58,855 nucleotides of DNA from an uncultured Enterobacteriaceae bacterium (GCA_964477695.1 CAYZFN010000224.1:1-58855), one strand, 5' to 3'. Positions 7,942 to 26,177 are shown, numbered from the stretch's first letter. The notes: generated by a model from the letters alone, not told the origin. Translations and numbers: made by a program.

Positions 7942-8057
7942 GGGCTCAACGATAGGGTGAGCATCATCGCTTTAGTTCGATCGTCTGCAAGGCTTTGTCA
8001 TCGACTGTCAACGCACGGGCGGCAAAGCGTGCATTTTGCCTCGTCGCGGACAGCGTC

Positions 8058-8417
8058 CTACTTGCCAGCGAAATGGCGCTCCATGCGGCTATGGCTCGCG
8101 TCCAGGACCCGCAGGGCCTGGTTGATGCGCGCCTCGAGCGCCGCGCAATCGGCCTCGCCTGCGCTGCGCTCGAGCGCACTGCATTCGCCCGACAGGCGCT
8201 CGGCGCCCATCGAGCCGCTGCTGCCCTTCAGGCGATGCGCCTCGCGTGCCAGGCGCCCCCGGTCGCCCTCGCGCGCGCAGCCGCGCATGCGCTCGAGCGC
8301 AGCGCGCGCTTCGCGGGTGAACGACTCGAGCAGGCCGGCCATGAAGCGCTTGCCGGAGCGCGCCTCGACCGCGAGCAGCTCGTCGAGGGTCTGCAGGTTG
8401 AGCAATTCTTCAGGCAT
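8058..8417 (-). CDS. Stand-alone Hpt phosphotransfer protein
   Basis: LAREAHRLKGSSGSMGAERLSGEC Hpt signature. Confidence 0.9.
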   Translation of the reverse strand: MPEELLNLQTLDELLAVEARSGKRFMAGLLESFTREARAALERMRGCAREGDRGRLAREAHRLKGSSGSMGAERLSGECSALERSAGEADCAALEARINQALRVLDASHSRMERHFAGK

Positions 8418-9411: not shown

Positions 9412-9796
9412 GGCCGCGGCTCCCGAGCACGCGATCGATGGTCTGGACGAGCGCGCGCGGCCGGAACGGCTTGATCAGGACCTCGCTCACGCCGAGGGTT
9501 TCGCGCTCCTCGCCGAGCTCCATCTCGGCGGCGGCGGTGAGAAATACGACCGGCACGTCGCGCAGCTCGGCGGTGGCGCGCATGGCGCGCAGGACCGCCA
9601 CGCCGTTCATGCCCGGCAGGTCGACGTCGAGCAGCACGAGGTGCGGCGCCGCTTCGCGGGCCGCGTCGAGCGCCCGCGCCCCATCGGCGACCGTCTGCAC
9701 CGCATAGCCGCCGATCTGCTCCAGGACGACGCGCACCAGCCGCTGCAGGCTGGCGTCGTCCTCCACGTGCAGTATCTTTCGGCGGGGCTCGCTCAT
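9401..9796 (-). CDS. Single-domain response regulator (REC)
   Basis: ILHVEDD, VLLDVDLPGMNG, FLTA, LIKPF. Start at ATG 9796 (MSEPRRK). Confidence 0.9.
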   Translation of the reverse strand: MSEPRRKILHVEDDASLQRLVRVVLEQIGGYAVQTVADGARALDAAREAAPHLVLLDVDLPGMNGVAVLRAMRATAELRDVPVVFLTAAAEMELGEERETLGVSEVLIKPFRPRALVQTIDRVLGSRGHGR

Positions 9797-9846
9797 CGCG
9801 CTCTGCGCAAGGGGCCTGCGCTCGGTAGAATGCTTTCCCGGAGGCG

Positions 9847-10605
9847 ATGGTGGGACAAAGAGAAGCGAGACCGGCGCCGGGGGCGCCGCGCATTGCCGTG
9901 CTGGAAGACGACGCGTCGCAAGCCAAGCTGCTCGAGCACTGGATCGTCTCCCAGGGCTACCTGTGCCGCACCTTCGCACGCGGGCAGGACATCCTGCAGG
10001 CGCTCCTGCACGACACCTACGACCTGGCCGTGCTCGACTGGCGGGTGCCCGACCTGAGCGGCGAAGAGGTGCTGCGCACCCTGCGCAAGTCGCTGCGCCA
10101 GCCGCTTCCGGTGCTCTTCACCACGGCGCGCGACCGCGAGGAAGACATCGTCCACGCCCTTAAGAGCGGCGCCGACGACTACCTCGTCAAGCCGCTGCGC
10201 CGGATGGAGTTCCTCGCCCGCCTGGAGGCGCTGCTTCGGCGCTTCCACGGCCCGGCGCGCGAGCCGAACCAGCCGATCGAGGCGGAGCCCTTCCGCATCG
10301 ATCCGCAGGGCCGCACCGTGCACAAGGGCGGCGTCATGGTCGAGCTCACCCAGAAGGAGTTCGAGATGGCGGTGCTGCTGTTCCGCAACGTCGGACGGCT
10401 GCTCTCGCGCTCCTACCTGCTCGACACGGTCTGGGGCATCAGCGCCGAGGTCAGCACGCGTACCGTCGACACGCACGCGAGCCAGCTGCGCAGCAAGCTC
10501 GGGCTCTATCCCGACCAGGGCTGGCGCCTGAGCGCCGTGTACCAGCATGGCTATCGGCTGGAGCGGATCGCGGCGCAGCCCGAGGCCAAGGGCAAAGCCT
10601 CCTAA
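9847..10605 (+). CDS. OmpR/PhoB-family DNA-binding response regulator
   Basis: REC (LEDD, VLDWRVPD, VKP) followed by winged helix (LTQKEFEMA, RTVDTHASQLRSKL). Confidence 0.92.
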   Translation: MVGQREARPAPGAPRIAVLEDDASQAKLLEHWIVSQGYLCRTFARGQDILQALLHDTYDLAVLDWRVPDLSGEEVLRTLRKSLRQPLPVLFTTARDREEDIVHALKSGADDYLVKPLRRMEFLARLEALLRRFHGPAREPNQPIEAEPFRIDPQGRTVHKGGVMVELTQKEFEMAVLLFRNVGRLLSRSYLLDTVWGISAEVSTRTVDTHASQLRSKLGLYPDQGWRLSAVYQHGYRLERIAAQPEAKGKAS

Positions 10606-10610
10606 GCGGC

Positions 10611-11651
10611 TCATTTCGCCTCCGGCATGCAAAGCTCGACCAGCCGGCGGGCAATCGCCTGCGGCGGCATCACGTCGTGCACCGCATTGAGCGCGATCGC
10701 ACGCTTCGGCATCCCGAACACGACGCAGCTCGCCTCGTCCTGCGCGATGTTGTGCGCGCCCTTGCCGCGCAGCTCGACCATGGCTTCGGCGCCGTCGCCG
10801 CCCATGCCCGACATCAGCACCGCGATGCAGTGCCGTCCGGCCGCCTCGGAAGCCGAGCGGAACAGCGTATCGATCGAGGGCCGGTGGCGGTTCACCGGCG
10901 GATCCTGCGACAGGCGCGTCTCCAGCCGTCCGGAACGCGAGGCGACCGTCATGTGGAGCCCGCCGGGCGCGATGTAGGCCTGGCTCGGCTGCAGCGCGTC
11001 GCCATGCACGCCTTCCTTGACGCCGATGGCGCACAGGCTGTTCAGCCGCTGCGCGAAGCTGCGGGTGAAGCCCGCGGGCATGTGCTGCACGATCAGGATC
11101 GGCGGCATGCCGCGTGGCAGCGGCACGAGCAGCTCGCGCAACGCTTCCACGCCGCCGGTCGATGCGCCGACGACGATGAACTTGCTGGCGATCGCGCGTC
11201 CGGCGGCGAGCCGCGGCACGGCGGCGCCCGACGGGCGCGCGGGCTTCGGCGCAAGGCGCGCCCCGGCCGCCGCGCGCAGCTTCTCGGCCACCTCTTCGGC
11301 GTACGCGTTGATTTCCTGCTCGCTGGTCAGCACCGGCTTGGTCACGAAGTCGACCGCGCCGAGCTCGAGCGCGCGCAGCGTAACGTCCGCGCCATGGGCC
11401 GTGAGCGAGGACACCATGACCACCGGGACCGGCCGCGACGCCATGAGGCGCGGCAGGAACTCCAGGCCGTTCATGCGCGGCATCTCGACGTCGAGCGTGA
11501 TCACGTCGGGGCTCACACGGCGCAGGTGCTCCATCGCCACGACCGGGTCGCTCGCCACCGCGGCGACCGTCATGTCGGGCTGCGCGTTGATGATGCGGCT
11601 CATGATGCCGCGCATCACCGCCGAGTCGTCGATCACGAGCACGCGGATCAT
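10611..11651 (-). CDS. cheB: Chemotaxis methylesterase/response regulator CheB
   Basis: REC, then GASTGG, IVQHMPAGFT, HRPSID, SGMGGDGA. Start ATG 11651 (MIRVLVIDDS). Confidence 0.95.
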   Translation of the reverse strand: MIRVLVIDDSAVMRGIMSRIINAQPDMTVAAVASDPVVAMEHLRRVSPDVITLDVEMPRMNGLEFLPRLMASRPVPVVMVSSLTAHGADVTLRALELGAVDFVTKPVLTSEQEINAYAEEVAEKLRAAAGARLAPKPARPSGAAVPRLAAGRAIASKFIVVGASTGGVEALRELLVPLPRGMPPILIVQHMPAGFTRSFAQRLNSLCAIGVKEGVHGDALQPSQAYIAPGGLHMTVASRSGRLETRLSQDPPVNRHRPSIDTLFRSASEAAGRHCIAVLMSGMGGDGAEAMVELRGKGAHNIAQDEASCVVFGMPKRAIALNAVHDVMPPQAIARRLVELCMPEAK

Positions 11652-12223
11652 TTGCGCTTCCTGAAGATCTCGATCTCGCCCGCCCCGCCGCGCTGCAGCT
11701 TGGCGAGGTAGTCGCGCTCCTCGCGGCGCAGGCCGTCGTCGCGCAGCGCCTGCAGGCGCTTGACCAGCGCACGCCCGCTCTGCGGGAAGAACGCCACCTT
11801 GCGCGGGTAGAGATCTTCCAGGTCCTGCGCCGCCACCGGAATGCGCTCCTCGGCGAGAAATTCGAGCACGAACGCGGCGTTGCGGCTGCCGATGTTCAGG
11901 GTCTCCATGCCCTCGAGCACGTTGGCGCCGCCGAACACCTTGGCCACCAGGCTGCCGCGCTCCGCGCCGCACTTGAGCATGCGGTTGATCAGGACCTCCA
12001 TGGCATAGATGCCAAGCCGCGCCGAATCGCCCGCGCCGGGCAGCATGAAGTGATTCATGCCGCCGATGCGCCGGCGGGTGTCCCACAGGCAGGCGGAGAC
12101 GCACGAGCCGAGCACCGTCACCATCGCGAGGTCGCTCGGCGTCGCGAAGAATTCCCCCGGCGGCACCTTGACGACGTCGCGCTGGAGGGTCTTGTCGAAG
12201 TAGCGGCTGACGGGCTCTTCCAT
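11648..12223 (-). CDS. cheD: Chemoreceptor glutamine deamidase CheD
   Basis: TVLGSCVSACLWD, GGMNHFMLP, AKVFGGA, YPRKVAF. Confidence 0.95.
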   Translation of the reverse strand: MEEPVSRYFDKTLQRDVVKVPPGEFFATPSDLAMVTVLGSCVSACLWDTRRRIGGMNHFMLPGAGDSARLGIYAMEVLINRMLKCGAERGSLVAKVFGGANVLEGMETLNIGSRNAAFVLEFLAEERIPVAAQDLEDLYPRKVAFFPQSGRALVKRLQALRDDGLRREERDYLAKLQRGGAGEIEIFRKRK

Positions 12224-12227
12224 CGCG

Positions 12228-13055
12228 CTAGCGCCTCGTGTAGGCCGTCTTGCCGTGCGGACGAAAAGCGGGATGACCGGCCGCGCAGCTCTCGGAGTGG
12301 CCGAGAAAGAGCAGCGCCCCGGGCACCAGCACGTCGGCCAGCCGCTCGAGCAGCCGCTGCTGCGACGCGCGGTCGAAGTAGATCAGCACGTTGCGGCAGA
12401 AGACGGCGTCGAAGCGCTCGCCGCCCGCCCAGTGCGGCGCGAGCAGGTTGCGGAACTCGAAGCTCACCATGGCGCGCACCTCGGGGCGCAGCAGTGCGAG
12501 GCCGTCGTTGCGCCCGGTGCCCTTCAGGAAATGCGGCTGCATGCGCTTGAAGCCGGCGCGCTCGAGCAGATCCGTCTTGTACACGCCCCGCTGCGCGGTG
12601 GCGAGCGCTTCGGTGTCCACGTCGCTCGCGAGGATGCGCGCCGTGCAACCCGCCTCGCGCAGCGTGATCGCGGCCGAGTACGGTTCCTCGCCGGTCGAGC
12701 AGGCGCTGCTCCAGACGCGCAGCGGCGCGCGCCCCCGTGCGTGCTCGAGCAGCATCTCGAAATGATGCGGCTCGCGGAAAAACGCCGTCAGGTTGGTGGT
12801 GAGGGCGTTGATGAAGCGCTCGCGCTCCTCGGAATCGGGCTGCTCCACCCAGTCGAGGTAGTCGCGAAAGCTGCGCCGCCCGGTAGCGCGCAGCCGCCGG
12901 GAGAGCCGGTTGTAGACCATGTTCTCCTTGCGCTCGTGCAGCGAGATCCCGGCGTAGGCCAGGATCAGCTCGCGCACCCGCCGGAAGTCCTGGTGCGTGA
13001 AGGAGAAATCGTGTTCCAAGGCTTGCATGGCGGGGGCGCTCGGCGTCCGGGGCAC
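12228..13055 (-). CDS. cheR: Chemotaxis methyltransferase CheR
   Basis: LTTNLTAFFREPHHF, WSSACSTGEEPYS, FCRNVLIYFD, LFLGHSES. Start may be the Met of MQALEHDF. Confidence 0.95.
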   Translation of the reverse strand: MPRTPSAPAMQALEHDFSFTHQDFRRVRELILAYAGISLHERKENMVYNRLSRRLRATGRRSFRDYLDWVEQPDSEERERFINALTTNLTAFFREPHHFEMLLEHARGRAPLRVWSSACSTGEEPYSAAITLREAGCTARILASDVDTEALATAQRGVYKTDLLERAGFKRMQPHFLKGTGRNDGLALLRPEVRAMVSFEFRNLLAPHWAGGERFDAVFCRNVLIYFDRASQQRLLERLADVLVPGALLFLGHSESCAAGHPAFRPHGKTAYTRR

Positions 13056-13067
13056 GGACGCCGTCGC

Positions 13068-14816
13068 CTAGAACTCCTGCCAGCCTTCTTCGGCGTGGCC
13101 GTTGCCCTTGCGTTTGCCTGCCTTGGGCGAGTGGCTGTACGTCTCCACCTTCTTCGGGCTCGCAGCGAGAGTCTTCTCCGGCGCGGGCTTCCTGGGCGCC
13201 GCCGGCGCTTCCGCCGGATGAGCTTCGATCTTCCTCGGCTGCGCCAGGGGCTTCGGCGCGGGTGCGCTGTGCGCGGGCTCCTGGCCGAGCCGGAACGCCG
13301 CCACCGCGCTCGAGAGCGTGCGCGACTGCTCTTCCAGGCTGCCGGCGGCCGCGCTCGCCTCCTCCACCATCGCCGCGTTCTGCTGCGTCACCTTCTCGAG
13401 CTGCGTCATGGTCTCGCTCACCTGCTCGATCCCCTGCGCCTGCTCCGTGCTCGCCGCCGTGATCTCGGCAATGAGGCTGGTCACCTTCTTCACCGACTCC
13501 ACCACCTCCTGCATCGTGCGCCCGGCGTCGTTCACCTGGCGCGAGCCGGCGTCCACCTTCGATACCGAGTCGGTGATCAATTCCTTGATCTCCTTGGCCG
13601 CCCCGGCCGAGCGCTGCGCTAGGCTGCGCACCTCGGAGGCCACCACGGCGAAGCCGCGCCCCTGCTCGCCCGCGCGCGCCGCCTCCACCGCGGCGTTGAG
13701 CGCCAGGATGTTGGTCTGGAAGGCGATGCCGTCGATCACGCCGATGATGTCCGAGATCTTCTTCGACGCTTCGGTGATCGCGTTCATCGTGCCCACCGCC
13801 TCGCGCACCACCTCGCCGCCCTTCGCGGCGACGCTCGAGGCCTGCGCGGCGAGCTCGTTCGCCTTTTTCGCGTTCTGCGCGTTCTGTCCGACCGTGGCGG
13901 TCATCTGCTGCATCGACGCCGAGGTCTCCTCGAGCGCGCTCGCCTGCTGCTCGGTGCGCGTCGAGAGGTCCGAGTTGCCCTGCGCGATCTCGCGCGAAGC
14001 GTTGGCGACCATGTCGGTGCCGTTGCGCACGCCGGACACGATGCGCTTCAGGCTGTCGTTCATGTCCTTCAGCGCGCGCGACAGCTCCGCCGTCTCGTCG
14101 GCACCCTGGACGCGCACCTCGGAGGTCAGGTCGCCGCCCGCGATGCGCCGCGCCACGACGATCGCGCGCTGCAGGGGCTGCACGATGCGCCGGCTCATGA
14201 AGAGCGAGATGCTGATCGAGATCAGCAGCGCGGCCGCGACCAGGATGACCAGTGCGACCGTCACCTTGGCGAACGCGGCCCGCGCATCGTCGTAATCCTC
14301 CTGCGCGCCGCGCGTCTCGAGCGCGACCAGCTCGTCGAACTGCTTGGCCATGTCCTGGAAGTCGGCATCCGCGGTCTGCATGGCGGCCGCGCCGGTGTTG
14401 ACGTCGCCGGCGCTGAGATCGATCGCCAGGTCGACGTCCTTGCGGTATTTCGCGAGCTTCGCTCCGACGGCGGCCGCGGCCCGGCGCTCCTCCGGCGAGC
14501 GCTCCGACCGCGCCGCGAAGGCGGCGACGTCCCGGGACACGGCGTCGACCTTCGAGAGCAGCCCGCTGGCGGTCTGCTTGATGCGGTCATCGCTTAGGCT
14601 GCCGATCACGCTGAACAGGCGGTACACGCCGGAGTGCACCTCGCCGATGTCGTGCACCGAGCGCGCGGCGAGCTGATAGCTCGTGAAGCGCTGCTCGAAG
14701 AGCTCCGACAGCGTGTGCTGCTGACCGATCAGCACGCTGTAGACCGTGATCCCGAGCGCGAGCAGGAATGCGATCGCTACGCCCGGGGCGATGAGTATCT
14801 TGTGCCAGACCTTCAT
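13068..14816 (-). CDS. Methyl-accepting chemotaxis protein with C-terminal CheR/CheB-tethering pentapeptide
   Basis: Two transmembrane segments, helical periplasmic domain, HAMP, IAFQTNILALNAAVEAARAGEQGRGFAVVA, C-terminal GWQEF. Confidence 0.95.
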   Translation of the reverse strand: MKVWHKILIAPGVAIAFLLALGITVYSVLIGQQHTLSELFEQRFTSYQLAARSVHDIGEVHSGVYRLFSVIGSLSDDRIKQTASGLLSKVDAVSRDVAAFAARSERSPEERRAAAAVGAKLAKYRKDVDLAIDLSAGDVNTGAAAMQTADADFQDMAKQFDELVALETRGAQEDYDDARAAFAKVTVALVILVAAALLISISISLFMSRRIVQPLQRAIVVARRIAGGDLTSEVRVQGADETAELSRALKDMNDSLKRIVSGVRNGTDMVANASREIAQGNSDLSTRTEQQASALEETSASMQQMTATVGQNAQNAKKANELAAQASSVAAKGGEVVREAVGTMNAITEASKKISDIIGVIDGIAFQTNILALNAAVEAARAGEQGRGFAVVASEVRSLAQRSAGAAKEIKELITDSVSKVDAGSRQVNDAGRTMQEVVESVKKVTSLIAEITAASTEQAQGIEQVSETMTQLEKVTQQNAAMVEEASAAAGSLEEQSRTLSSAVAAFRLGQEPAHSAPAPKPLAQPRKIEAHPAEAPAAPRKPAPEKTLAASPKKVETYSHSPKAGKRKGNGHAEEGWQEF

Positions 14817-14852
14817 GAGCTCCTCCTTTGGCCTTGACGGAGTGCGCGCACC

Positions 14853-15335
14853 TTAATCCTTGTACACGCCGCCGCAGACGACCGTCTCTTCCAGGCGCTC
14901 GCAGTACATCTGCTTGGCCTCGATCTTCTTGGTGAGCGGATCGGTGAACTTGTAGTCCTGCCAGAAGCTCGGCTTGGACTTGCCCAGCTCGACGCGCTCG
15001 CGCACGAACTCCTTGCCGTCGATGTCCTTCAGGTCGATCACCACCTTGCCGACCATGCGCTCGTTCTGGCCGTGCGCCCAGACCTTGCCGTCGAGGCCGT
15101 ACACCACGAGGTAGAGGTCGCGGTCGTGGAACTTGCCGCCCTTGGCGGTGAAATCGGCGTACGCCTTCTCTTTGCCGCTGGCCTTGATGTACTGCACGCC
15201 CTTCTTGACCATCGCGACCGCTTCCTCCTTGGTCGCCCTGCGCTCCACCGGCGCGGCGAGCGCGCTGGCGCAGGTGAGCGCCGCGGCCGTGCCGAGCGCG
15301 ATGAGGGTGAGCTGCTTGCGGGTTGCGTTTTTCAT
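14853..15335 (-). CDS. Secreted stand-alone single Cache (sCache_2-like) domain protein
   Basis: Signal peptide MKNATRKQLTLIALGTAAALTCASALA; LYLVVYGLDG, AHG, DLKDIDGKEFVRE, WQDYKF. Confidence 0.82.
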   Translation of the reverse strand: MKNATRKQLTLIALGTAAALTCASALAAPVERRATKEEAVAMVKKGVQYIKASGKEKAYADFTAKGGKFHDRDLYLVVYGLDGKVWAHGQNERMVGKVVIDLKDIDGKEFVRERVELGKSKPSFWQDYKFTDPLTKKIEAKQMYCERLEETVVCGGVYKD

Positions 15336-15367
15336 GGCACTTCCTCCCTTCGGTTGATGGGGGTTAT

Positions 15368-15775
15368 TCATTTCGGCAGACGGTCGTAGCGCGCGTCGGC
15401 AACGCGTACCAGCGCCGCGAGCTGCTGCACGCGGGCGCGGTCCTTTTGGCCCTCGGCCAGCGCTCCCGCGCTGCGCGTGAGCTCGTCGATGCGCCGGCGC
15501 GCTTCGTCGCGGCGCACCCGGTAGTAGGTACTCTTCTGCGCGCCCGGCGCGGCGAGCATGTTCTTCTCCAGCTCGCGCAGGAACTGCACGCGGCCCTGGA
15601 CGCCGGCCGCGGCGCGGACGAACTCGTTGCGCCGCGCTTCGGCGGCCTCGCGCGGCAGCGTCGCGGCCTGCGCGACCAGCATCGCGCTCGTGCCCATGAC
15701 CAGCAGCAGGAGGGCCCAGGCGAGGCTCGGCGCGCTGGCGGCGAAGTCGTGCGCCGCGGGGCCGGCGTGCCTCAT
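15368..15775 (-). CDS. Hypothetical membrane-anchored helical protein
   Basis: ATGA overlap with cheW stop; N-terminal hydrophobic stretch followed by amphipathic helices. Confidence 0.6.
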
Positions 15776-16293
15776 GAGCGGGCCTCCGCGCGGGCGTGGT
15801 CGACGAGCTGCATGTCCTCGCTCGTCATCAGCCGCTCGATGTCGACCAGGATCAGCATGCGCTCGGCAACGGTGCCGAGGCCGGTGATGAAGCGCATGTC
15901 GAGTGCGCCGCCGAACTCGGGCGCCGGGCGGATCTGCTCGGCGCCGAGCGTGATCACGTCCGACACCGCGTCGACCACGATGCCGAGCACGCGCCGCGCG
16001 ACGCTGAGAATGATGACCACCGTGAACGCGTCGTACTTGGGCTCGGCGAGACCGAACTTCACGCGCAGATCGACGATCGGCACGATCGTGCCGCGCAGGT
16101 TGATCACGCCCTTGATGAAGGCCGGCGTGTTGGCGATCCCGGTCGGCGTCTCCCAGCCGCGGATCTCCTGCGCATTGAGGATGTCGATGCCGTACTCCTC
16201 GGCGCCGAGCCGGAAGGTGAGGAACTCGCGGCCCACGGCGTCGCCGCCGCTCGCCGCGGACTGCGGCGCCGGCCTGATCAGTGCAGCTTCCAC
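15772..16293 (-). CDS. cheW: Chemotaxis coupling protein CheW
   Basis: [42 protein letters not shown]. Confidence 0.95.
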
Positions 16294-18290
16294 TGTGCTC
16301 TCCCTGAGGGTTGACCGATGATGTGGGCGAGGTCGAGGATCAGCGCGACCTTGCCGTCGCCCATGATCGTCGCCCCGCTGATGCCGGGCACCTTGCGGAA
16401 ATTGGCCTCCAGGCTCTTCACGACCACCTGCTGCTGGCCGATCAGCTCGTCGACCAGCAGCGCGGCGCGCGCGCCGTCGGCTTCGACGATCACGGCGATC
16501 TCGTCGCTGCGCCCGAGGCGGCGCACCGGGACATATTCGTCGCGCACGCGCAGCGTGTGGCCCTGGCCGGCCACGCTGCGGATCTCGTCGGCCTGCACGC
16601 TGCGCGACTCGACGACCGAGGCGAGCGGCAGCACGTAGGTCTCGCCCGCGGCGCCGACGGTCATCGCTTCGATGATGGCCAGCGTCAGCGGCACGCTCAC
16701 GGTGACCGCCATGCCCTTGCCGGCGGTCGAGGCGAGCTCGACGTTGCCGCTGAGCAGCTGGATGTTGCGCCGGACGACGTCCATGCCGACGCCGCGCCCG
16801 GAGACGTCGGTGACGGTTTCCGCGGTGGAGAAGCCGGGCTCGAAGATGATGCGCCAGACGTCCTGGTCGGCTGCGTCGGCGGCGATGGTCATGGCGCGCT
16901 CGGCGGCGCGCCTGAGGATGCGTTCGCGGTCGAGGCCGCGGCCGTCGTCGCGCACTTCGATGATGATGCGGCCGCCGCGCTGCATCGCCGACAGCCAGAT
17001 CGTGCCGCAGCGCGGCTTGCCCGCGGCCTCGCGCACCTGCGGCGTCTCGATGCCGTGGTCGATGGCGTTGCGTACCAGGTGCGTGAGCGGATCGGTGATG
17101 CGCTCGATCAGGCCGCGGTCGAGCTCGGTCGCCTCGCCCGCGACCTTGATCTCGACCTCCTTGCCCAGCCGCTGCGAGAGCTCGCGCACCAGGCGCGGGA
17201 AGCGGGAGAACACCGCCGAGATCGGGACCATGCGGATCGCCATCACGGCTTCCTGGAGATTGCGCGTATGCCGTGCGAGCTCGCCCAGGCCGCTTAATCC
17301 CGCGCCATCGCCATCGGCGCGGGCGGCCTGCTGCGACAGCATGGCCTCGGTGATCACCAGCTCGCCGACCAGGTTGACCAGGCGATCGATCTTTTCGACG
17401 CTGACGCGGATCGAGCCGGCCTCGCTTTGCTGGGCGGCCGTGCGGTCCGACTCGCGCCGTCCGTGCGTGGTCGTGGCGAGCGCATCGCTCGAGCGCCGGC
17501 CGCGCCCTTTGCGGCGCTCGCGCCAGGCCTCGGGAGAGGTGAAGATATCCACGCCGGCGCCATCCGCCGCGGCCGGCGCGGCTTGCGGCGCTGCCTCTTG
17601 CGCTACGGGAGCGGCCGCGACTTCAGGTTCCTCGGCAGCGCCCGCAGGAGCTATGTGGATCTGCTCGGCCGGCACCACCAGCGAAAGCACGCTGCGCAGG
17701 TCGGCCTCGCAGGCAGCGAGCGACACGCCGAAGCGGATCTCGCCGCCCGCGACGTTGTTGATCTGCGGCGCATCGACCCTGCCCATGCCGGCGAGGCCGC
17801 CGAGCATGGTCTCGAGCGCGGCGGCGTCGATCGGCTCGCCGAGCGGCCCGAGCTTCACCGCGAAGCCGTGCTCGGCGTCGGGGGCCGAGGCGCTGATCAG
17901 CGCGCGCAGCTCGGCCTCGGCGATGCTCATGTCGGGCGGCGAGGCGAGCGCGCCGCGGCGGAAGGCCACCTGCATCTTGACCACGTCGCCCGAGCGCAGC
18001 ATCGCCTCGACGTCGGCGTGGCTCACGGCGCGCTGCTGCTTGCGCAGCAGGTCGAGCAGGTTCTCGAACGCGTGGGTGAGCGACACGATCTCGGTGAAGC
18101 CGAGCATCCCGGCGCTGCCCTTGATCGAGTGCACGGCGCGGAAGATGGCATTCAGCGCCTCGGCATCGGGCGCCTCGGGGTCGAGGCGCAGCAGCATCGT
18201 CTCCACGCAGGCCAGGTGCTCGTCGGCCTCCTCGAAGAAGATGGCGTGGAACGCGCTCGGCTCGAGCCCTTTTGCGCCGGGACCGGTCAT
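16278..18290 (-). CDS. cheA: Chemotaxis histidine kinase CheA
   Basis: P1 [56 protein letters not shown]5 CheW-like domain; no C-terminal REC. Confidence 0.95.
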
Positions 18291-18652
18291 GACACGAACT
18301 GGCGGACGATCTCGACCATCTTCTGCGGATCGAACGGCTTGGCCATCCAGCCGGTGGCGCCGGCCTCGCGGCCTTTCGCCTTCAGCTCGGCGCCCGTCTC
18401 GGTCGAGAGCACGAGCAGCGCCACGTCGTCGTATTGCGGCAGCTGGCGCAGCGCGCGCACCAGCGTCACGCCGTCCATCTTCGGCATGTTGTGGTCGGTG
18501 ACCACCATGTCGAACACGCGCGCCTTCGCCTTCTCCAGCGCTTCGGCGCCGTCGGCCGCCTCTTCCACCTGGTAGCCGGCCGCCTGCAGGACGCTCGCCA
18601 CCATCTTGCGCATCGAGCGGGTGTCGTCCACTACAAGAATCGCGTTGCTCAT
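18287..18652 (-). CDS. cheY: Chemotaxis response regulator CheY
   Basis: VVDDTRSMR, TDHNMPKMDG, LSTE, GATGWMAKPF. Confidence 0.93.
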   Translation of the reverse strand: MSNAILVVDDTRSMRKMVASVLQAAGYQVEEAADGAEALEKAKARVFDMVVTDHNMPKMDGVTLVRALRQLPQYDDVALLVLSTETGAELKAKGREAGATGWMAKPFDPQKMVEIVRQFVS

Positions 18653-18674
18653 CGACGAAGTCTCCGGTCGGTCG

Positions 18675-19502
18675 TCAGGCCGCGGCCCGCGCGGTGGGAA
18701 GGAACTTGGCGATCACCTCGAGCAAGCGGTTCTCGTCGACCGGCTTGGTGAGGTACTCGTCGCATCCGGCGAGCGAGCCGCGCAGCTTGTCGAACGGCGA
18801 GCTGCGGCTCGTCAGCATGACCACCGCGGTGCGCTTCACCGCCTGCTTGTTGGACTTGATCAGCTTGCACACCTGGTAGCCGTCGATGCCGGGCAGCACC
18901 ACGTCGAGGAACACGCAGGTGTATTCCTTGTTGCCGGTGAGCCCGACCGCCTCCTCGCCGGTTTCCGCGAAGTCGGCGCTGAAGCCGTACGGCGCGAGCT
19001 TCGCCTCCATGAACTTGCGCACGGTCAGGTTGTCGTCGACCACCAGCACGGCGTCGGTGAACTCCTTCACCTTGCCTGCCGGGCGGGGCGCGGCGGCCGG
19101 CCTGGCGGACGGTGCGTTGGTGCTGGTACGGCGCAGGACCCTCTCGGTCTCGATCGCCGGGGCGCCGGCCTGTCCGCCGAGCACGGCGTCGTCGAAGCTT
19201 TGCAGGAGCTTCGCCCACTGCAGCGGCCGCGGCAGCACCGGCAGGCCCAGCTTGGAATCGCCTTCGCCGATCAGGATGGCCGGCGCCGCATAGCGGGCGC
19301 GCACCGCGCGGAACTCGGTCATGGCGGCAGCATCGCTGCCGTCCACGAGGTACAGGTCGGCGGGCCGGGAAGCGCCCGCCTCGCGCTGCACGAAGCTCGG
19401 ATCACGCCGGGCCGCCAGGCCGAAGATGCTGGAGAGCAGCAGCCGTTCGGTCTGGTTGAACCCGATTACGTCGACGCAGTAGCTGTTGTCGTTGTCGGCC
19501 AT
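18675..19502 (-). CDS. Response regulator with degenerate N-terminal receiver-like domain and PilG-like C-terminal REC
   Basis: C-terminal VVDDNLTVR, FLDVVLPGIDGYQVCKLIK, MLTSRSSPFDKLRGSLAGCDEYLTKP. Confidence 0.82.
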   Translation of the reverse strand: MADNDNSYCVDVIGFNQTERLLLSSIFGLAARRDPSFVQREAGASRPADLYLVDGSDAAAMTEFRAVRARYAAPAILIGEGDSKLGLPVLPRPLQWAKLLQSFDDAVLGGQAGAPAIETERVLRRTSTNAPSARPAAAPRPAGKVKEFTDAVLVVDDNLTVRKFMEAKLAPYGFSADFAETGEEAVGLTGNKEYTCVFLDVVLPGIDGYQVCKLIKSNKQAVKRTAVVMLTSRSSPFDKLRGSLAGCDEYLTKPVDENRLLEVIAKFLPTARAAA

Positions 19503-19580
19503 AGGATCGTCCAGGCAACTAGGGTTAAGGCACTGTAGCGGCGGGCATTCGCCGAATTGGCAGGCTATGCAAGAGCTTTG

Positions 19581-21665
19581 TCAGGTCGTGCAAACGTCTT
19601 TGCGCAGCGCGATCTGCGTCCACACTTCGTCGATCGCCCCGAGCAGCGCGTCGGCGCTGCGGAAGCGCGCTTCCGGCCGCTTCGCGAGCATGCCGTCGAC
19701 GAGCGCCTGGTATTCGGCGAGCTCCGCCGGCAGGCCCGGCACGGGCGCCGCGACGTGCTGCGAGAGGATCTCGAGGATCGTCGTGCCGTTGAACGGCCGC
19801 TGGCCGGTGAGCATCTCGTAGAAGATGATGCCGAGGCTGTAGAAGTCGCTCGCCGGCGTGACCTCGCCGCCGTCCGCCTGCTCGGGCGAGATGTAGTACG
19901 GCGTGCCGAGGATCTCGCCGTGCAGCGTCTGGTTGGCCGAGTTGTCGAGCCGCTTGGCGACGCCGAAATCCGTGAGAACCAGCACGCCCGCATCGCGCAG
20001 CATGAGGTTGGCCGGCTTCACGTCGCGGTGCACGATGCCGCGTCCGTGAATTTCTCCCAGGCCGCTCGCCGCCTGCGAAAGCAGCGACAGCGCCTGGCGC
20101 GGCGTAAGGCCGCGATCGATCTGCTCGCGCAGGCTGCCGCCGCGCAGGTACTCCATCGCCAGGTAGGCGAGCTCCTCGCCGAAGCCCTGGTCGTAGATGC
20201 GCACGACGTGCTCGTGCTCGATCGAGGACAGGATCGCGCATTCCTGGAAAAAGCGCTTCCACAGGCCGTCGTCGTCGCTGCGCCGGCCCTTCAGGACCTT
20301 CAGCACCACCTTGCGGTGGCCGCCGTCCTGCTCCTCGGCGAGGAACACGCTCGACATGCCGCCCTGACCGATCTTCGCCAGCACGCGATAGCCGTGGATC
20401 AGCGGCTCGCTGTCGCTCGCCAGGTCGGCGGCGCGCTTCGGCGCGCCGATCGCGTTCAGCGTGCTGTCGAGCGCGTGCTTCGCCGCCTCGGCGGTCGTCA
20501 GCGCGCTCTCCTGCAGCACCGCCTGGATGCCGAAGCTGAGCGGCGGCTCGGCCGCGCTCGCGGGCGCGCTCGCCGGTATGACGAGGCGGCCGACGCTGAT
20601 GCGCGCGCCGCGCCCGGCGAGCTCGAGCTCCCTCGTCTCGGCGACGCTGAAGCCCGCGCCCGCATAGTCGAGCGTGGCCTGGCTCGCCACGATCGGCCAG
20701 CCGAGCTCCTTGGATTTCGCTTCCAGCCGCGCCGCAACGTTCACCGTATCGCCGATCGCCGTCAGGTCGCCCGAGCCGCCGACCGAGAGCTGGAACAGCA
20801 TCACCTCGCCGGTGTGGATGCCGACGCCGATATCGAACGGCGGCAGGATCACCGAATCGAAGCGCGAGGCGACCCAGCTGCGAAACTGCTGCGCCACCTG
20901 CACGATTTCCAGGGCAGCGCGCAGCCCGGCCGCGGCATGCTGCGGCACTTGGTCGGGCGCCTCGTGGCCGAACAGCGCCATGAGCCCGTCGCCCATGATC
21001 TTCATGATGCGGCCGCGCTGCGCGAGGATCGGCTTGCAAGCCTCGCGCAGATAGGTGGTCAGGAGCTCGGCGATGTCCGTGACCGGCAGGCGCTCCGACA
21101 TGGTGGTGAAGCCGCGGATATCGGTGAACAGCACGGTCTGCGTGACGCGCCGGCCGGTCAGCCCGGCCAGATCCGCGTCGGTGGCGAGCTGCGGCTCGCC
21201 GCCTTCGATCTTCGATTCGTAGCGCGCGCGCAGCTCCCTCTCCACGGGCAGAGCGCGGCCGGAGACGAGCGCGCTCAGGCGGCGGCGCTTGTCGAGCGCG
21301 ACGTTGACCGCGTCGACGAGCTCGACCGGCTGCACCGGCTTGCACAGGAAGTCGTCTGCGCCCAGGCGCATGCCGCGGCGCACGCTGTCACGGTCGTTGA
21401 GCGACGTGAGCAGGACGAACGGCAGCGTGGCGGTCTTGGCATCGGCGCGCACCCGCTCGAGCACCTGGAAGCCGTCGAGGCCCGGCATCTGCACGTCGCA
21501 AACGACGAGGTCGGGCAGCGCGAGGCGGATCCTCTCCAGCCCGGCATTGCCGTCGGCGGCCACCTCGACCTCGAAGCCGGCCGCGCCCAAGAGGTGCGAC
21601 ACCAGGACGCGCATGGTCGGGTCATCGTCGATCGCGACGATGCGCTTTACGGTCGGAAGGGTCAT
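19581..21665 (-). CDS. REC - class III adenylate cyclase - Ser/Thr kinase fusion protein
   Basis: REC (DDD, CDVQMP, LTS, KP); cyclase FTDIRGFT, KIMGDG, GIHTGEV, TAIGDTVNVAARLE; kinase GQGGMS, VLKVL, HRDVKPAN, DFG, GTPYYISPE. Start ATG 21665. Confidence 0.9.
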   Translation of the reverse strand: MTLPTVKRIVAIDDDPTMRVLVSHLLGAAGFEVEVAADGNAGLERIRLALPDLVVCDVQMPGLDGFQVLERVRADAKTATLPFVLLTSLNDRDSVRRGMRLGADDFLCKPVQPVELVDAVNVALDKRRRLSALVSGRALPVERELRARYESKIEGGEPQLATDADLAGLTGRRVTQTVLFTDIRGFTTMSERLPVTDIAELLTTYLREACKPILAQRGRIMKIMGDGLMALFGHEAPDQVPQHAAAGLRAALEIVQVAQQFRSWVASRFDSVILPPFDIGVGIHTGEVMLFQLSVGGSGDLTAIGDTVNVAARLEAKSKELGWPIVASQATLDYAGAGFSVAETRELELAGRGARISVGRLVIPASAPASAAEPPLSFGIQAVLQESALTTAEAAKHALDSTLNAIGAPKRAADLASDSEPLIHGYRVLAKIGQGGMSSVFLAEEQDGGHRKVVLKVLKGRRSDDDGLWKRFFQECAILSSIEHEHVVRIYDQGFGEELAYLAMEYLRGGSLREQIDRGLTPRQALSLLSQAASGLGEIHGRGIVHRDVKPANLMLRDAGVLVLTDFGVAKRLDNSANQTLHGEILGTPYYISPEQADGGEVTPASDFYSLGIIFYEMLTGQRPFNGTTILEILSQHVAAPVPGLPAELAEYQALVDGMLAKRPEARFRSADALLGAIDEVWTQIALRKDVCTT

Positions 21666-23158
21666 AGGCCTAGCCTCGCGCAATCGTCGAGCAGCGCCTG
21701 TGCGCTCGAATAGCGTTCTTCGCGGTCCTTCGCCATGAGCTGGTCGAGGATCGGCTGCAGCGATTCGTGCGGCTGCGGCAGCTGCGGCACCGGCGCATTG
21801 GCGTGCAGGTCGAGCAGCTCCTCGGCGGTCGACGCGCGGTAGGGCTTTTGCCCGGTCAGCATCTCGAACAGGATCACGCCCAGGCTGTACAGGTCGCAGC
21901 GCTGGTCCACCGGCTGCGCCGTCGCCTGCTCCGGGCTCAGGTAGTAGGGCGTGCCGACCACCTCGCCGTGCGCGGTGTCGGTGATCAGCATGCCGACGTG
22001 CTTCGCGACGCCGAAGTCGGCGAGCGCGAGGCTGCCGTCCCTGCGCAGCATGAGGTTGTCCGGCTTGAGATCGCGATGCACGATGCCCGCCTCGTGGATG
22101 GCGCCCAGCGCCGCCGCGGTCTGCTTGACGTAGGAGATCGCCGCGCCGGGGGCGACGCCGGCGGCAATGCGCGCGCGCAGGTCGCCGCGCGAGAAGTACT
22201 CCATCGCGATATAGGCGTGCCCCGACGAGAAACCCTGGCGGTGGATGTGCGCGACGTTCGGATGCTGCACCTGGGCGAGCAGCGCGAACTCCTGGATGAA
22301 GCGCTGCAGGTGATCGTTGTCGCCCTCGCCGACGATGCGCATGACCTTCAGCACCTGCGGCTCGCCCGTGCCGTCGGCGGCGAGATAGATCGACGCCATG
22401 CCGCCCTCGCCGATCTTCTTCAGGATACGGTACCCCTCGATGGAAAAATGCAGGCCGGCGGCCTGCGCCGCGGCGGTCGCGGCACGCGCGAAGTCCTGCG
22501 GCCGGTCGTATTGCTTCTGGTTGGCGGCGATCGCGTCGCGCAGCGCCTGGTAGATCGCGGGCGCGCTGCGCGAGTTCTTCTGCGGCGCGAGGCCGGTCAC
22601 CTCGGCGATGTTGACGAACGACTCGTCGGGCATCGCCACCGAGCCGAAACGCCCGGACTCGATGCGCGCCCCGGCGGCGCGGCAGGCTTCGTCGGACGCG
22701 ACGATGCTCCAGCCGACGTCCGGGGCCGTGCATTCCAGCGCGCGGGCGATCTCGACGGCCTCGCCGGTCGCGCGCACCGCACCGCTCGTGCCGCGTGCGG
22801 CCGGTGCGACTTCGACGCGGCCGAGGTGCACGCCCGCCGCGACGGTGACCGGCGGCGCGTCGTGGCGCAGGCGCTCGGCGTTGCGCCGGTTGAGCGCGTC
22901 GGTCTCGTAGACCGCCAGGGTCGCCGCATGCAGCGCGCGGCGCGCGTGGTCCGGCTTCTCGTTCGGATCGTTGGCGAAGATGGCGAGGATGGAATCGGGA
23001 CGGCGCTGCACGATGATGCCCTTCTGGCGGCTGATGGGCGACTCGAGCACGCCGCGCAACTCGTCGACGAAGCCGGCGCTCAGATGCGGCGGCATCGCGT
23101 TGCAGGTCGGCAGCACGTTGCGCAGGCGCGCGTAGAGAATGGTCGCTACCGTTTCCAT
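21662..23158 (-). CDS. Degenerate (pseudo) class III cyclase domain - Ser/Thr kinase fusion protein
   Basis: N-terminus aligns with the neighbouring cyclase but catalytic residues are lost; kinase GEGGMAS, VLKVM, HRDLKPDN, DFG, GTPYYLSPE. Start at METVATIL. Confidence 0.85.
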   Translation of the reverse strand: METVATILYARLRNVLPTCNAMPPHLSAGFVDELRGVLESPISRQKGIIVQRRPDSILAIFANDPNEKPDHARRALHAATLAVYETDALNRRNAERLRHDAPPVTVAAGVHLGRVEVAPAARGTSGAVRATGEAVEIARALECTAPDVGWSIVASDEACRAAGARIESGRFGSVAMPDESFVNIAEVTGLAPQKNSRSAPAIYQALRDAIAANQKQYDRPQDFARAATAAAQAAGLHFSIEGYRILKKIGEGGMASIYLAADGTGEPQVLKVMRIVGEGDNDHLQRFIQEFALLAQVQHPNVAHIHRQGFSSGHAYIAMEYFSRGDLRARIAAGVAPGAAISYVKQTAAALGAIHEAGIVHRDLKPDNLMLRRDGSLALADFGVAKHVGMLITDTAHGEVVGTPYYLSPEQATAQPVDQRCDLYSLGVILFEMLTGQKPYRASTAEELLDLHANAPVPQLPQPHESLQPILDQLMAKDREERYSSAQALLDDCARLGL

Positions 23159-23333
23159 GCCGGCGAATGGGCTCTCCTCACGGCGCGTATGGTTGCGCGG
23201 GAGGGCGAGCGCAAATGTCAGCAACTGTCGGCCATTGGCAAGGTTGTAAGAGCCGCCAGGTCGCACATTCCCTGACAAAGGCTTTACGCATGCTGCCGAT
23301 CGGCGCGGCCGACGCCGTCTACATTGCGCTTCG

Positions 23334-24266
23334 ATGGGCAGGCAAGCGAACCAGCCACTGCGCGACGGCACCCTCCTCGACGAATACCGCATCGAGCGCC
23401 TGCTCGCTTCGGGCGGCTTTTCGTTCGTCTATCTCGCGCGCGACGCGCTGGGCTCGCCCTGCGCGATCAAGGAATATCTTCCCGCCACGCTGCCGATGCG
23501 CACCGGAGCCGATGCCGCGCTCAGCGTGCCGGAGATGCACCGCGCGGTGTTTCGCCACGGCCTGCAGTGCTTTTTCGCCGAGGCGAAGGCGCTCGCGGGC
23601 TTGCGCCATCCGAACGTAGTGCGCGTGCTGAAGTTCTTTCGCGGCAACGGCACGGCGTACATGGCGATGCGCTATGAGCGCGGGCGCACGCTCCAGCACT
23701 GCATCGAGCACGGCGGCGCCCGGCCGCGCGAGAGCTGGATCCGCGCCAAGTTCGCGCAGCTCTTGAACGGGCTGCGCGAAGTGCACTCGAGCCGCCTGGT
23801 TCACCTCGACATCAAGCCGGCGAACATCTATCTGCGCGAGGGCGACGATCCGATGCTGATCGACTTCGGCGCCGCGCGCGCCGCGCTGGGACGCGACGCC
23901 GCCGACCTGCCGCCGACCTATACGCCGGGCTTCGCCGCGCCCGAGCACCACGGCGGGCGCGGCCAGCTCGGGCCGTGGAGCGACATCTACTCAATCGGCG
24001 CCTGCATGTATGCCTGCCTGTCCGGCGAGGTGCCGCCGGCGGCGATCGAGCGCCGTGCGCAGGAACGCCTGCGCGCGCTGCACGAGCGCGCGGCCAGCCA
24101 ATATTCGAAGGAGCTCGTGCGCATCGTCGAAGCGTGCATGCGCCTCGATCCCGAGCAGCGGCCGGGCAGCGTGCTTTCGCTCCAGAAGGCGCTCCTCGGC
24201 GAGGCGTCGCTGCCGCAGATCGATGTGCCTGTGCAGCCGGCGCGCGGGCAGGCTCTGGCGATCTGA
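23334..24266 (+). CDS. Hanks-type Ser/Thr protein kinase
   Basis: LASGGFSFVYLA, AIKEYLP, HLDIKPANI, IDFG, TPGFAAPEH. Confidence 0.92.
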   Translation: MGRQANQPLRDGTLLDEYRIERLLASGGFSFVYLARDALGSPCAIKEYLPATLPMRTGADAALSVPEMHRAVFRHGLQCFFAEAKALAGLRHPNVVRVLKFFRGNGTAYMAMRYERGRTLQHCIEHGGARPRESWIRAKFAQLLNGLREVHSSRLVHLDIKPANIYLREGDDPMLIDFGAARAALGRDAADLPPTYTPGFAAPEHHGGRGQLGPWSDIYSIGACMYACLSGEVPPAAIERRAQERLRALHERAASQYSKELVRIVEACMRLDPEQRPGSVLSLQKALLGEASLPQIDVPVQPARGQALAI

Positions 24267-24269
24267 GCC

Positions 24270-25016
24270 ATGAACATCTCCGTGGTGCAGGAGACGCGCA
24301 AAGGCGGGCGGCCCTACAACCAGGACCACCTCGCGCACTGGATTACGCCCAAGGCCCTGCTGCTCGCCGTCGCCGACGGCATGGGCGGCTACGCCGGCGG
24401 CGAGCTCGCCGCGCGGGCCGCGGTGGAGTGCCTGGGCGAGGCGTTCCGTTCCCAGGCAAAGCCGGCGCTTTCCGATCCGCAAGCGTTTCTGTCCGGAGCG
24501 ATCGGCAAGGCGCATGCCGCCGTGGTGCGGCAGGCGGCCAAGGCGGGACTCGGCGAGGAGCCGCGCACCACGCTCGTCGCCTGCGTCGTGCAGGCCGGCC
24601 AGGCCTACTGGACGTTCATCGGCGACTCGCGCTTCTACCTGATCCGCGAGGGCAAGATCGTCGTACGCACCAAGGACCACACCTACGTGCAGCAGCTGAT
24701 CGACGCCGGCCGCATGCGCGAGGAAGCGGCCGCCGCGCATCCTGAGCGAAGCAAGCTGCTGCGCTGCCTCGGCGGAACCGTGGCGCCGGCCGGCGAGCCG
24801 ATTGCCAGCGCGCGGCTCGCGAAGGACGACATCATCCTGCTCTGCTCGGACGGCCTATGGGGTCCGCTCACCCCGCGGCTGCTCGTCATGGGCCTGACCG
24901 GCAAGGATCCGCGCCGCGCAGTTCCGGAGCTCATGAACCTCGCCGAGGCGCACGGCGGCCCGGGTTGCGACAACCTCTCGGCGCTGGCGCTTCAGTGGCA
25001 TACGGAGGCCGCCTAG
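24270..25016 (+). CDS. PP2C/PPM-family Ser/Thr phosphatase
   Basis: NQDH, VADGMGG, IGDSRFY, LCSDGLWG, DNLS. Confidence 0.92.
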   Translation: MNISVVQETRKGGRPYNQDHLAHWITPKALLLAVADGMGGYAGGELAARAAVECLGEAFRSQAKPALSDPQAFLSGAIGKAHAAVVRQAAKAGLGEEPRTTLVACVVQAGQAYWTFIGDSRFYLIREGKIVVRTKDHTYVQQLIDAGRMREEAAAAHPERSKLLRCLGGTVAPAGEPIASARLAKDDIILLCSDGLWGPLTPRLLVMGLTGKDPRRAVPELMNLAEAHGGPGCDNLSALALQWHTEAA

Positions 25017-26093: not shown

Positions 26094-26177
26094 TGCCCGG
26101 GGCCGGACTCGAACCGGCACGGCCTCGCGGCCGGCAGATTTTAAGTCTGCTGCGTCTACCCGTTTCGCCACCCGGGC
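26094..26177 (-). tRNA. tRNA-Leu (anticodon TAA), CCA not encoded
   Basis: GCCCGGG/CCCGGGC acceptor stem, GGGTAGACGCA D arm, GCAGAC-TTAAAA-TCTGC anticodon arm, long variable arm, GGTTCGAGTCC T arm; followed by CAC rather than CCA. Confidence 0.93.

Follow-up and report, generated by a model that had tools for sequence, protein, structure and literature searches.

What does a chemosensory array control when its genes follow, in one tightly spaced run, those of two proteins that join a Ser/Thr kinase to an adenylyl-cyclase-like domain? This question is raised by a 58,855-nt stretch of DNA (GCA_964477695.1, CAYZFN010000224.1:1-58855), which is referred to below as the window. A cluster of twelve open reading frames (ORFs) occupies its minus strand (positions 10611-23158), and every junction between them is an overlap or a gap of no more than 78 nt. 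Translation of the ORFs, followed by domain identification using Pfam, gave the gene order A, B, C, cheY, cheA, cheW, orf135, a gene for an sCache_2 protein, a gene for a methyl-accepting chemotaxis protein (MCP), cheR, cheD and cheB. Judged from its sequence, the locus encodes a real and conserved form of chemosensory pathway, as yet uncharacterised, that probably has an alternative output, and we infer phosphotransfer from CheA to the receiver (REC) domain of B. It probably represents a lineage-specific signalling module of uncultured Burkholderiales, in which a CheD-containing F7-class core with a receptor of heptad class 36H is joined to a receiver-controlled pair of Hanks-type kinases.

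Gene A (21662-23158) encodes a protein of 498 aa composed of a pseudo-cyclase domain and a Hanks-type Ser/Thr kinase (Pfam Pkinase, residues 243-489, E=1.4e-48). The product of gene B (19581-21665; 694 aa) contains (i) a receiver, (ii) a class III adenylyl-cyclase-like domain and (iii) a Hanks kinase (Pfam Response_reg, Guanylate_cyc and Pkinase, respectively), and gene C (18675-19502) encodes a PilG-like response regulator of 275 aa with its REC domain at residues 152-264. The stop codon of A and the start codon of B share the sequence ATGA (4-nt overlap), and the B-C and C-cheY spacers comprise 78 nt and 22 nt, respectively. The ORFs scanned in the window include neither cheZ nor genes for flagella or pili; the other large ORFs of this set are housekeeping genes (groEL, uvrC, pdxJ, lepA, a gene for a DegP-like protease, fabF and plsX). 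Within the cluster, the Pfam domain calls included no FHA or other obvious kinase-substrate gene. An earlier reading of this DNA, made from the letters of the sequence and called here the sequence-only reading, had proposed the same twelve genes with the same order and domains, the same overlap and gaps, and a window lacking cheZ, flagellar and pilus genes; the ORF coordinates and Pfam results reproduce the gene list and the spacing in full, and the ORFs scanned agree with the absences.

The sequence-only reading had named absence of this linkage in relatives as one of the findings that would speak against it. We compared gene neighborhoods in loci from genomes, metagenomes and assemblies (numbered with the prefix L), using tblastn with the window proteins, precomputed gene calls and 10-kb flanks. 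In 16 of the 18 loci of the clade the linkage is kept, with A directly upstream of B, and C and the che genes (as far as the contigs reach) directly downstream. These loci (L001, L003, L004, L019-L025, L041, L043, L044 and L103-L105) encode B proteins 51-82% identical to that of the window. The same order in 16 independent related loci argues that the arrangement is not due to chance. The 4-nt A-B overlap of the window recurs in L019, L103 and L105, and A and B are predicted from it to be translationally coupled. CheY proteins of the related loci share 72-98% identity. In a scan of one genome per species, orthologs of B were found only in metagenome-assembled genomes (MAGs) of Burkholderiales; clustered at 90% identity, its full-length homologs fall into more than 110 groups, each of metagenomic or MAG origin. 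No cultured host emerged from a search: the named homologs of B and C all originate from MAGs, labelled Burkholderiales or 'Ideonella sp.'.

The flanks of the cluster vary. A gene for an OmpR-family response regulator (9847-10605, plus strand; Pfam Response_reg and Trans_reg_C) is convergent with cheB in the window, at a distance of 5 nt. It is placed at cheB in all four loci whose sequence extends past this gene (the window, L004, L019 and L025), with the same position and orientation and 66-75% identity in the latter three. No histidine kinase gene is consistently adjacent to it, so that this regulator may belong to the che system as an orphan. On the other side of the window cluster, a divergent Hanks kinase (23334-24266, plus strand; Pfam Pkinase) is paired with a PP2C phosphatase (24270-25016, plus strand; Pfam PP2C_2). 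A kinase/PP2C pair also accompanies the cluster in L105, where it is again divergent, and in L004, where it is found on the far side of the OmpR gene and A is preceded by metabolic genes. This variability of the flanks indicates that the block from A through cheB, together with the OmpR gene, behaves as a unit. Upstream of A, a small REC protein is encoded in L003, L019, L103 and L105, and a single-domain Hpt protein in L020, L026 and L104, which places A and B within His-Asp signalling. In L025, a REC-PAS-GGDEF-EAL protein is encoded approximately 1.5 kb upstream of A.

Inspection of the B protein revealed that its receiver contains the complete set of D13, D14, D57, T87 and K109, conserved across 117 homologs; the sequence-only reading was thus right to call this REC intact. 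The best solved relatives of the cyclase domain in a PDB sequence search were CyaC of Spirulina (1WC0) and CyaB of Pseudomonas aeruginosa (3R5G), and alignment with the motifs of CyaC (1WC0) identified all six class III catalytic residues (D182, K222, D226, T302, N309 and R313). Of these, D182 and D226 bind metal, K222 and T302 specify adenine, and N309 and R313 act on the transition state. The Lys/Thr pair is the signature of class IIIb. The Hanks motifs (the Lys of VAIK, the Asp of HRD, the catalytic Asn and the Asp of DFG) are present in both A and B and in every full-length homolog examined, apart from one alignment gap at the Lys position.

The cyclase residues are less constant. About 110 of the 117 full-length B homologs have the complete set of six, and in five (P0114-P0116, P0118 and P0119) the domain is degenerate, with G-K-D-S/A/M-D/A-L/S at most of the positions. 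These five sequences are about 51% identical to B of the window, and one of them, P0119, is encoded in L021, a locus that has retained its che linkage; L021 and L022 represent a che-linked lineage in which the cyclase residues of B have been lost. Invariant kinase motifs alongside a degenerate cyclase in a che-linked lineage suggest that the kinase is the constant output, and that cAMP synthesis is dispensable there. As predicted from these alignments, the kinase is the invariant output of B and cAMP an optional one. The cAMP output put forward in the sequence-only reading is accordingly plausible for the window, whose B cyclase has its residues intact, but it does not extend to the whole clade. 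Genes for cyclic-nucleotide (cNMP)-binding proteins were also sought near A as a sign of such an output. A stand-alone protein of this kind (147 aa) is encoded about 4 kb upstream of A in L019 (3788-4231) and L020 (6248-6688), with 60% mutual identity, and none was found near A in the window, L004, L024 or L025; this protein is weak support at best.

Which histidine kinase could feed the receiver of B? A comparative answer is offered by a sister clade of 20 loci encoding full-length REC-cyclase-kinase proteins 43-51% identical to B. They resemble B in being three-domain response regulators with intact receiver and kinase motifs, and differ from the window clade in lacking A, C and che genes and in having a classical histidine kinase as a partner: a PAS-HisKA-HATPase kinase is encoded immediately upstream, on the same strand, in 13 of the 13 loci with enough flanking sequence (L028, L029, L031, L032, L034, L036-L040 and L047-L049). 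In a midpoint-rooted neighbor-joining tree of B homologs the sister loci are cleanly separated from the che-linked ones, and the two loci of the che clade that lack the linkage (L002 and L026) fall inside that clade. The pairing indicates that the B family behaves as the response regulator of a neighboring His kinase. In the che-linked clade, CheA is the only His kinase conserved beside B, and no classical histidine kinase is conserved next to A and B. Comparison with the sister clade, together with the conservation of CheA, thus points to CheA as the probable phosphodonor of the B receiver, and we consider the sister-clade pairing the strongest indirect argument for the mechanism proposed below.

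Protein A carries the counterpart of the B cyclase in a different state. Its residues 1-165 are homologous to the B cyclase domain (BLASTP, 29% identity, E=4e-18), and A gave no match to Pfam Guanylate_cyc even at E=10. The six catalytic positions are occupied by R/Q/D/R/E/A, with the same substitutions in nine orthologs, and the kinase residues K/D/N/D are intact. A is therefore best described, from these residues, as a conserved pseudo-cyclase fused to an apparently active kinase; conservation of the substitutions points to a selected non-catalytic role.

Gene C encodes a conserved N-terminal domain of about 108 aa, a variable linker and a canonical C-terminal REC. At least 120 homologs (68-95% identity) were found, in which the REC domain is almost invariant. 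Many of them carry the JGI name PilG, and the description of C as PilG-like is by annotation transfer only. The N-terminal domains of C and A, as well as orf135, gave no credible Pfam match even at E=10, and a PDB sequence search with that of C found no relative. AlphaFold modelled C with low confidence (pLDDT 60, pTM 0.35); the N-terminal part of the model shows alternating beta and alpha elements, reminiscent of a degenerate receiver.

To which class does the chemosensory core belong? The MCP (13068-14816; Pfam 4HB_MCP_1, HAMP and MCPsignal) has a 4HB-HAMP-36H architecture and ends in EEGWQEF, containing the pentapeptide GWQEF. Its cytoplasmic domain aligned without gaps to residues 248-541 of Escherichia coli Tsr (E=4e-88), and in the alignment with Thermotoga 2CH7 the span was 14 residues longer in the 2CH7 chain than in the MCP; together these alignments place the MCP in heptad class 36H, as used by F7 systems. 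The remaining genes encode (i) CheY (18287-18652; 121 aa, Response_reg, E=1e-27), (ii) CheA (16278-18290; 670 aa) with a single Hpt and no fused REC (Hpt, H-kinase_dim, HATPase_c and CheW), (iii) CheW (15772-16293; CheW, E=7e-37), (iv) CheR (12228-13055; CheR_N and CheR), (v) CheD (11648-12223; CheD) and (vi) CheB (10611-11654; REC and methylesterase, by Pfam). The order cheY-cheA-cheW-mcp-cheR-cheD-cheB is present, with two extra genes between cheW and the MCP gene. The F7-like character suggested in the sequence-only reading fits the 36H class of the MCP and this order, which matches that of the beta-proteobacterial 'stage 3' F7 systems (PMC7184735). Two other classes were considered and rejected: (i) the ACF (Wsp-like) class, given that CheA has only Hpt, dimerisation, HATPase and CheW domains and that CheY and CheD are present, and (ii) the Tfp (Pil-Chp) class, given the single Hpt of CheA and the absence of pil genes among the window ORFs scanned.

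The two extra genes are orf135 (15368-15775), whose product has a hydrophobic N-terminus and no Pfam family, and a gene for an sCache_2 protein of 172 aa (14853-15371; Pfam sCache_2, E=4e-10), which also has a hydrophobic N-terminus and is predicted to be secreted. A counterpart of orf135 was found only in L025 (33% identity), and the sCache_2 protein, likely a ligand-binding partner of the MCP, is conserved in L004 and L025. In L104, a Peripla_BP_6 protein (15534-16682) is encoded between two MCP genes at roughly the place of the sCache_2 gene, and L103 carries additional MCPs. The input module thus appears to be interchangeable between loci. In L103, cheR (19781-20585) was called as two overlapping ORFs and one MCP gene (15689-17406) is likewise split, owing to frameshifts or to errors in the assembly of this contig.

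The sequence-only reading had also proposed that the whole run is apparently co-transcribed. Terminator-like hairpins in the region 9500-24500 were no more numerous than in shuffled sequences, and none lies in the B-C gap. A terminator or a riboswitch between B and C was rejected as an explanation of the spacer, in view of this missing hairpin, an RNA without unusual structure (z=+0.6) and the absence of any Rfam match there. Read-through from A-B is therefore possible. The strict form of co-transcription is, however, made doubtful by a promoter-like element in the same gap. This element of 29 nt (19556-19584, minus strand; CTGACAAAGCTCTTGCATAGCCTGCCAAT, also written CTGACAAAGnnCTTGCAnnGnCTGCCAAT) opens the B-C spacer, overlaps the stop codon of B and is followed by a TACAGT hexamer (19537-19532). 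It is kept in place in L001, L003, L004, L019, L023-L025, L043, L044, L103 and L105, which makes 12 loci with the window, although the remainder of the spacer has diverged, and it is absent in the lineages L020, L021, L041 and L104. A hexamer TAnAnT always lies 18-19 nt downstream of it, with no match to a -35 box. The element has no further match in the window with up to three mismatches and none in 100 shuffled sequences, and a fuzzy regular expression applied to 1.25 Mb of locus sequence gave only one stray match.

A second copy of the element (23272-23300, plus strand; CTGACAAAGGCTTTACGCATGCTGCCGAT) is located upstream of the divergent kinase gene, with TACATT (23320-23325) placed 8 nt before the ATG codon. 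Counterparts of this copy occur upstream of the divergent kinase in L105 and L001, and TACATT lies 7-9 nt before the ATG of this gene in the window, L001 and L105. The presence of the element upstream of both C-che and the kinase/PP2C pair suggests that they form one regulon. If TACATT is a -10 box, the kinase/PP2C mRNA would be leaderless. Leaderless mRNAs are believed to be uncommon in proteobacteria.

What kind of promoter could this be? A scan of the region 9500-24500 with the sigma-70 consensus revealed no promoter. The consensus of E. coli sigma-28 (FliA) is TAAAGTTT-N11-GCCGATAA; the element, of the form CAAAG-N14-GCC(A/G)AT, has exactly this spacing and matches 5/8 + 5/8 of the bases. 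Its -10 core reads CAA in nine loci at the B-C site, that of the window among them; CGA is found in the B-C element of L003, L103 and L105 and in the second copy of the window and L105. The same sequences can be read as three imperfect CTGnCAA direct repeats (7/11 positions) at intervals of about 11 nt, between about -33 and -61. Such an arrangement is typical of OmpR/PhoB-type regulators, and a predicted activator-dependent sigma-70 promoter would fit at least as well as a sigma-28 one. It is probable, from this placement and conservation, that the genes from C through cheB have their own regulated promoter, of a kind shared with the kinase/PP2C pair.

The mechanism towards which we lean, if only slightly, is a branched F7 pathway, in which CheA would phosphorylate CheY, C, CheB and the receiver of B, and B, probably together with A, would convert the signal into Ser/Thr phosphorylation and, in most lineages, also into cAMP. 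A ligand would be bound by the periplasmic sCache_2 protein, by the 4HB domain of the MCP, or by both. The MCP-CheW-CheA array would then set the rate of CheA autophosphorylation, with adaptation presumably provided by CheR (tethered via GWQEF), CheD and CheB. From its single Hpt, CheA would pass phosphate to the four receivers. Phosphorylation of the B receiver would alter the dimer state of the cyclase-homology domain, which in turn would switch the Ser/Thr kinase, and cAMP synthesis where the catalytic residues are kept. Protein A lacks a receiver and would most likely be brought under the same control by forming a dimer with B, joined at the cyclase-homology domains. The divergent kinase and the PP2C phosphatase may contribute further phosphorylation or undo it. 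The A:B heterodimer, the kinase substrates and the physiological role are speculative. The more specific version, in which phosphorylated CheA switches a receiver-gated A:B heterodimer of Hanks kinases with one live and one permanently dead cyclase-homology domain, the output being eukaryote-like protein phosphorylation, is possible but on balance doubtful.

Several observations weigh against the branched pathway. All the sequences are metagenomic or derive from MAGs, with no isolate known, and the evidence for transfer from CheA to B is comparative rather than direct. Two members of the che clade have no che genes nearby: L002, where B stands alone in a context otherwise like that of L003, and L026, where Hpt-A-B is followed by a different REC gene. 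The orphan B gene of L002 (4451-6508; 69% identity), which lacks A, C and che neighbors, is accompanied by genes for a prepilin peptidase, ZapD and DUF815. Since L003 and L103 carry a DUF815 gene upstream of the complete cluster, L002 seems to have lost its che genes secondarily. The REC and Hpt genes that precede A could mean that another phosphorelay feeds B, and the promoter-like element splits A-B from C-che, so that the conditions for expression may differ between the two. Finally, the gene order is that of the stage 3 F7 systems, predicted to be flagellar (PMC7184735), and the kinases might be accessory to such a system.

This last point leads to the rival that we take most seriously, although we consider it unlikely: an ordinary stage 3 F7 motility cluster, acting via unlinked F6-type cheY/cheZ, with A and B as bystanders belonging to a separate phosphorelay with Hpt/REC proteins or PAS kinases. 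The gene order and the Tar-like 36H MCP fit a stage 3 F7 system with a predicted flagellar role, the promoter-like element has the geometry of a flagellar sigma-28 promoter in one of its readings, several loci have an Hpt or REC gene ahead of A, and two genes for PAS histidine kinases lie 1-4 kb from the window cluster. Against this, A and B remain adjacent to C-che even where identity falls to 51% and where the flanks have been rearranged, as in L004 relative to the window. No histidine kinase other than CheA is conserved across the loci; the two PAS-HisKA-HATPase kinases of the window (6826-7971 and 8410-9474, minus strand), encoded beyond the OmpR gene, are possible alternative phosphodonors, but they have no counterparts beside the cluster of L004. 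The cheY of the cluster corresponds to the upstream, F7-type gene; neither the window ORFs scanned nor the gene tables read for other loci showed cheZ or flagellar genes; and at most sites the element has CAA as its -10 core, compared with the CGA of the sigma-28 consensus. By analogy with stage 3 F7 systems the cluster may also serve flagellar chemotaxis.

The two remaining rivals keep the kinases inside the system and reassign their role. If A, B and the divergent kinase/PP2C pair were input or modulatory components, they would place Ser/Thr phosphates on the MCP, CheA, CheW, CheY or C, with feedback from CheA entering through the receiver of B. The tight conserved linkage, and the cis element common to the che operon and the kinase/PP2C pair, would be expected under such a scheme; so would the nearly invariant REC of C, which suggests several binding partners, and a cluster devoid of FHA or obvious substrate genes. 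We nevertheless judge it quite improbable, since the REC-cyclase-kinase proteins of the sister clade pair with a histidine kinase in the absence of che proteins, so that their substrates are not generally che proteins, and positive phosphosite evidence is lacking. Less probable still is a mainly transcriptional output, with the OmpR-family regulator binding the CTGnCAA repeats and activating C-che and the kinase/PP2C pair, and with A and B playing a secondary part. It draws on the position of the OmpR gene, kept in all four loci that extend past cheB, on the TAnAnT hexamer at a fixed 18-19 nt with no -35 match, typical of activator-dependent promoters, and on L004, where no histidine kinase is encoded next to the regulator. 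The repeats are, however, imperfect (7/11 positions) and regulator binding is a prediction; the element is missing from L020, L021, L041 and L104; and activation of this kind is compatible with the branched pathway rather than exclusive of it.

How does the system compare with those already described? Chemosensory pathways with outputs other than motility are known to act through c-di-GMP (Wsp) or cAMP (Chp), or to control cyst formation and development. The Wsp system of Pseudomonas, a member of the ACF class, phosphorylates WspR, a REC-GGDEF protein, and thus produces a second messenger instead of driving motility; its CheA is a hybrid with a REC domain, CheY and CheD are missing, and the output enzyme is a diguanylate cyclase. 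The logic proposed for the window is similar, in that an array would act on a receiver fused to a nucleotide cyclase, but CheA of the window has no REC and the output would be a class III cyclase together with a protein kinase. The Pil-Chp system of P. aeruginosa includes a PilG-type regulator and controls CyaB and cAMP; CyaB is a separate membrane protein under indirect control, ChpA has multiple Hpt domains and pil genes are linked. The window shares with it a chemosensory pathway with a PilG-type regulator and a class III cyclase, and the B cyclase has CyaB among its closest sequence relatives (3R5G). Unlike in Pil-Chp, no separate membrane cyclase, multi-Hpt CheA or pil linkage was seen in the window.

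The closest relatives of the core are the F7 systems themselves. The cluster is like those of stage 3 (PMC7184735) in its gene order, in the lack of cheZ within the cluster, in a Tar-like 36H transmembrane MCP with only a HAMP and a signalling domain, and in a beta-proteobacterial host. It differs from them in the sCache_2 gene and orf inserted before the MCP gene, and in the conserved A-B-C genes: the F7 stages are described in PMC7184735 with neither a kinase nor a cyclase nor a PilG-like regulator ahead of cheY. With the ancestral stages 1-2 (V. cholerae cluster III, P. aeruginosa Che2 and S. oneidensis Che1), whose output is non-flagellar or unknown, the window shares the F7 class, CheD and a 36H receptor with a pentapeptide. 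Both are also found near genes related to Ser phosphorylation: an anti-sigma antagonist and a serine phosphatase in stages 1-2, and Hanks kinases and PP2C here. The ancestral systems, however, have soluble Aer2-type PAS-HAMP receptors and STAS/PP2C partner switching, whereas the window encodes a transmembrane 4HB receptor and Hanks kinase-cyclase fusions.

Fusions of this general kind have precedents. Pkn2 of Myxococcus contains a kinase, a cyclase-like domain and a transmembrane segment (PMC1262709). Like Pkn2 and the animal receptor guanylyl cyclases, A and B carry a kinase fold and a class III cyclase fold on one chain, sometimes with one of them dead; unlike them, they have the cyclase before the kinase, a receiver serves as the sensor, and the dead domain in A is the cyclase rather than the kinase. 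Kinase-cyclase fusions (PMC1262709), REC-cyclases and chemosensory pathways with second-messenger outputs are thus already known singly. Full-text searches of the literature did not yield any report of che genes clustered with a regulator composed of REC, class III cyclase and Hanks kinase.

If CheA does feed B, the locus would connect a methylation-adapting receptor array directly to Ser/Thr phosphorylation, and possibly to cAMP; this would widen the catalog of chemosensory outputs and offer a natural case of cross-talk between three bacterial signalling chemistries. Should the A:B heterodimer be real, it would be a bacterial mirror image of the animal receptor guanylyl cyclases, with His-Asp, Ser/Thr and cAMP signalling coupled in an operon-sized machine, and the upstream F7 set of cheY and regulator would gain a defined non-motility role. 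Ortega et al. (2020; PMC7184735), who predicted that stage 3 F7 systems drive the flagellar motor via unlinked F6-type cheY/cheZ, stated that the roles of the upstream F7 cheY and of the ancestral F7 systems are unknown, and the locus bears on their question about the targets of the ancestral F7 cheY and of non-enteric F7 systems. The conserved pair of a live and a dead cyclase is also a tractable case of pseudo-enzyme evolution. A practical limit is that the system has so far been seen only in uncultured Burkholderiales of soil and freshwater.

The remainder of the window, which has an overall G+C content of about 70%, contains further features outside the cluster. At a distance of 3 kb from the cluster, a PAS-GAF-GGDEF-EAL protein is encoded on the minus strand (26211-28703), and three tRNA genes (26094-26177, 38544-38614 and 38674-38746; minus strand) are the only features of the window identified using Rfam. 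A Crp/Fnr-family regulator (37303-38202, minus strand; HTH_Crp_2), whose cNMP_binding match (25 bits) is below the gathering score, could be a cAMP receptor; it lies 14 kb away and is unlinked to the cluster. Between 28000 and 34000 the G+C content falls from about 0.70 to 0.625-0.64 near groEL (30086-31723) and several short ORFs without a family. The longest ORF of the window (39336-42596, minus strand; 1086 aa) contains UvrC domains only at residues 508-1077; its GTG start has probably been placed too far upstream, or a separate gene has been merged into it. At the left end (1135-6629, plus strand), genes for an asparagine synthase, a PP-binding carrier protein, an AMP-binding enzyme and a hexapeptide acyltransferase form a small biosynthetic set.

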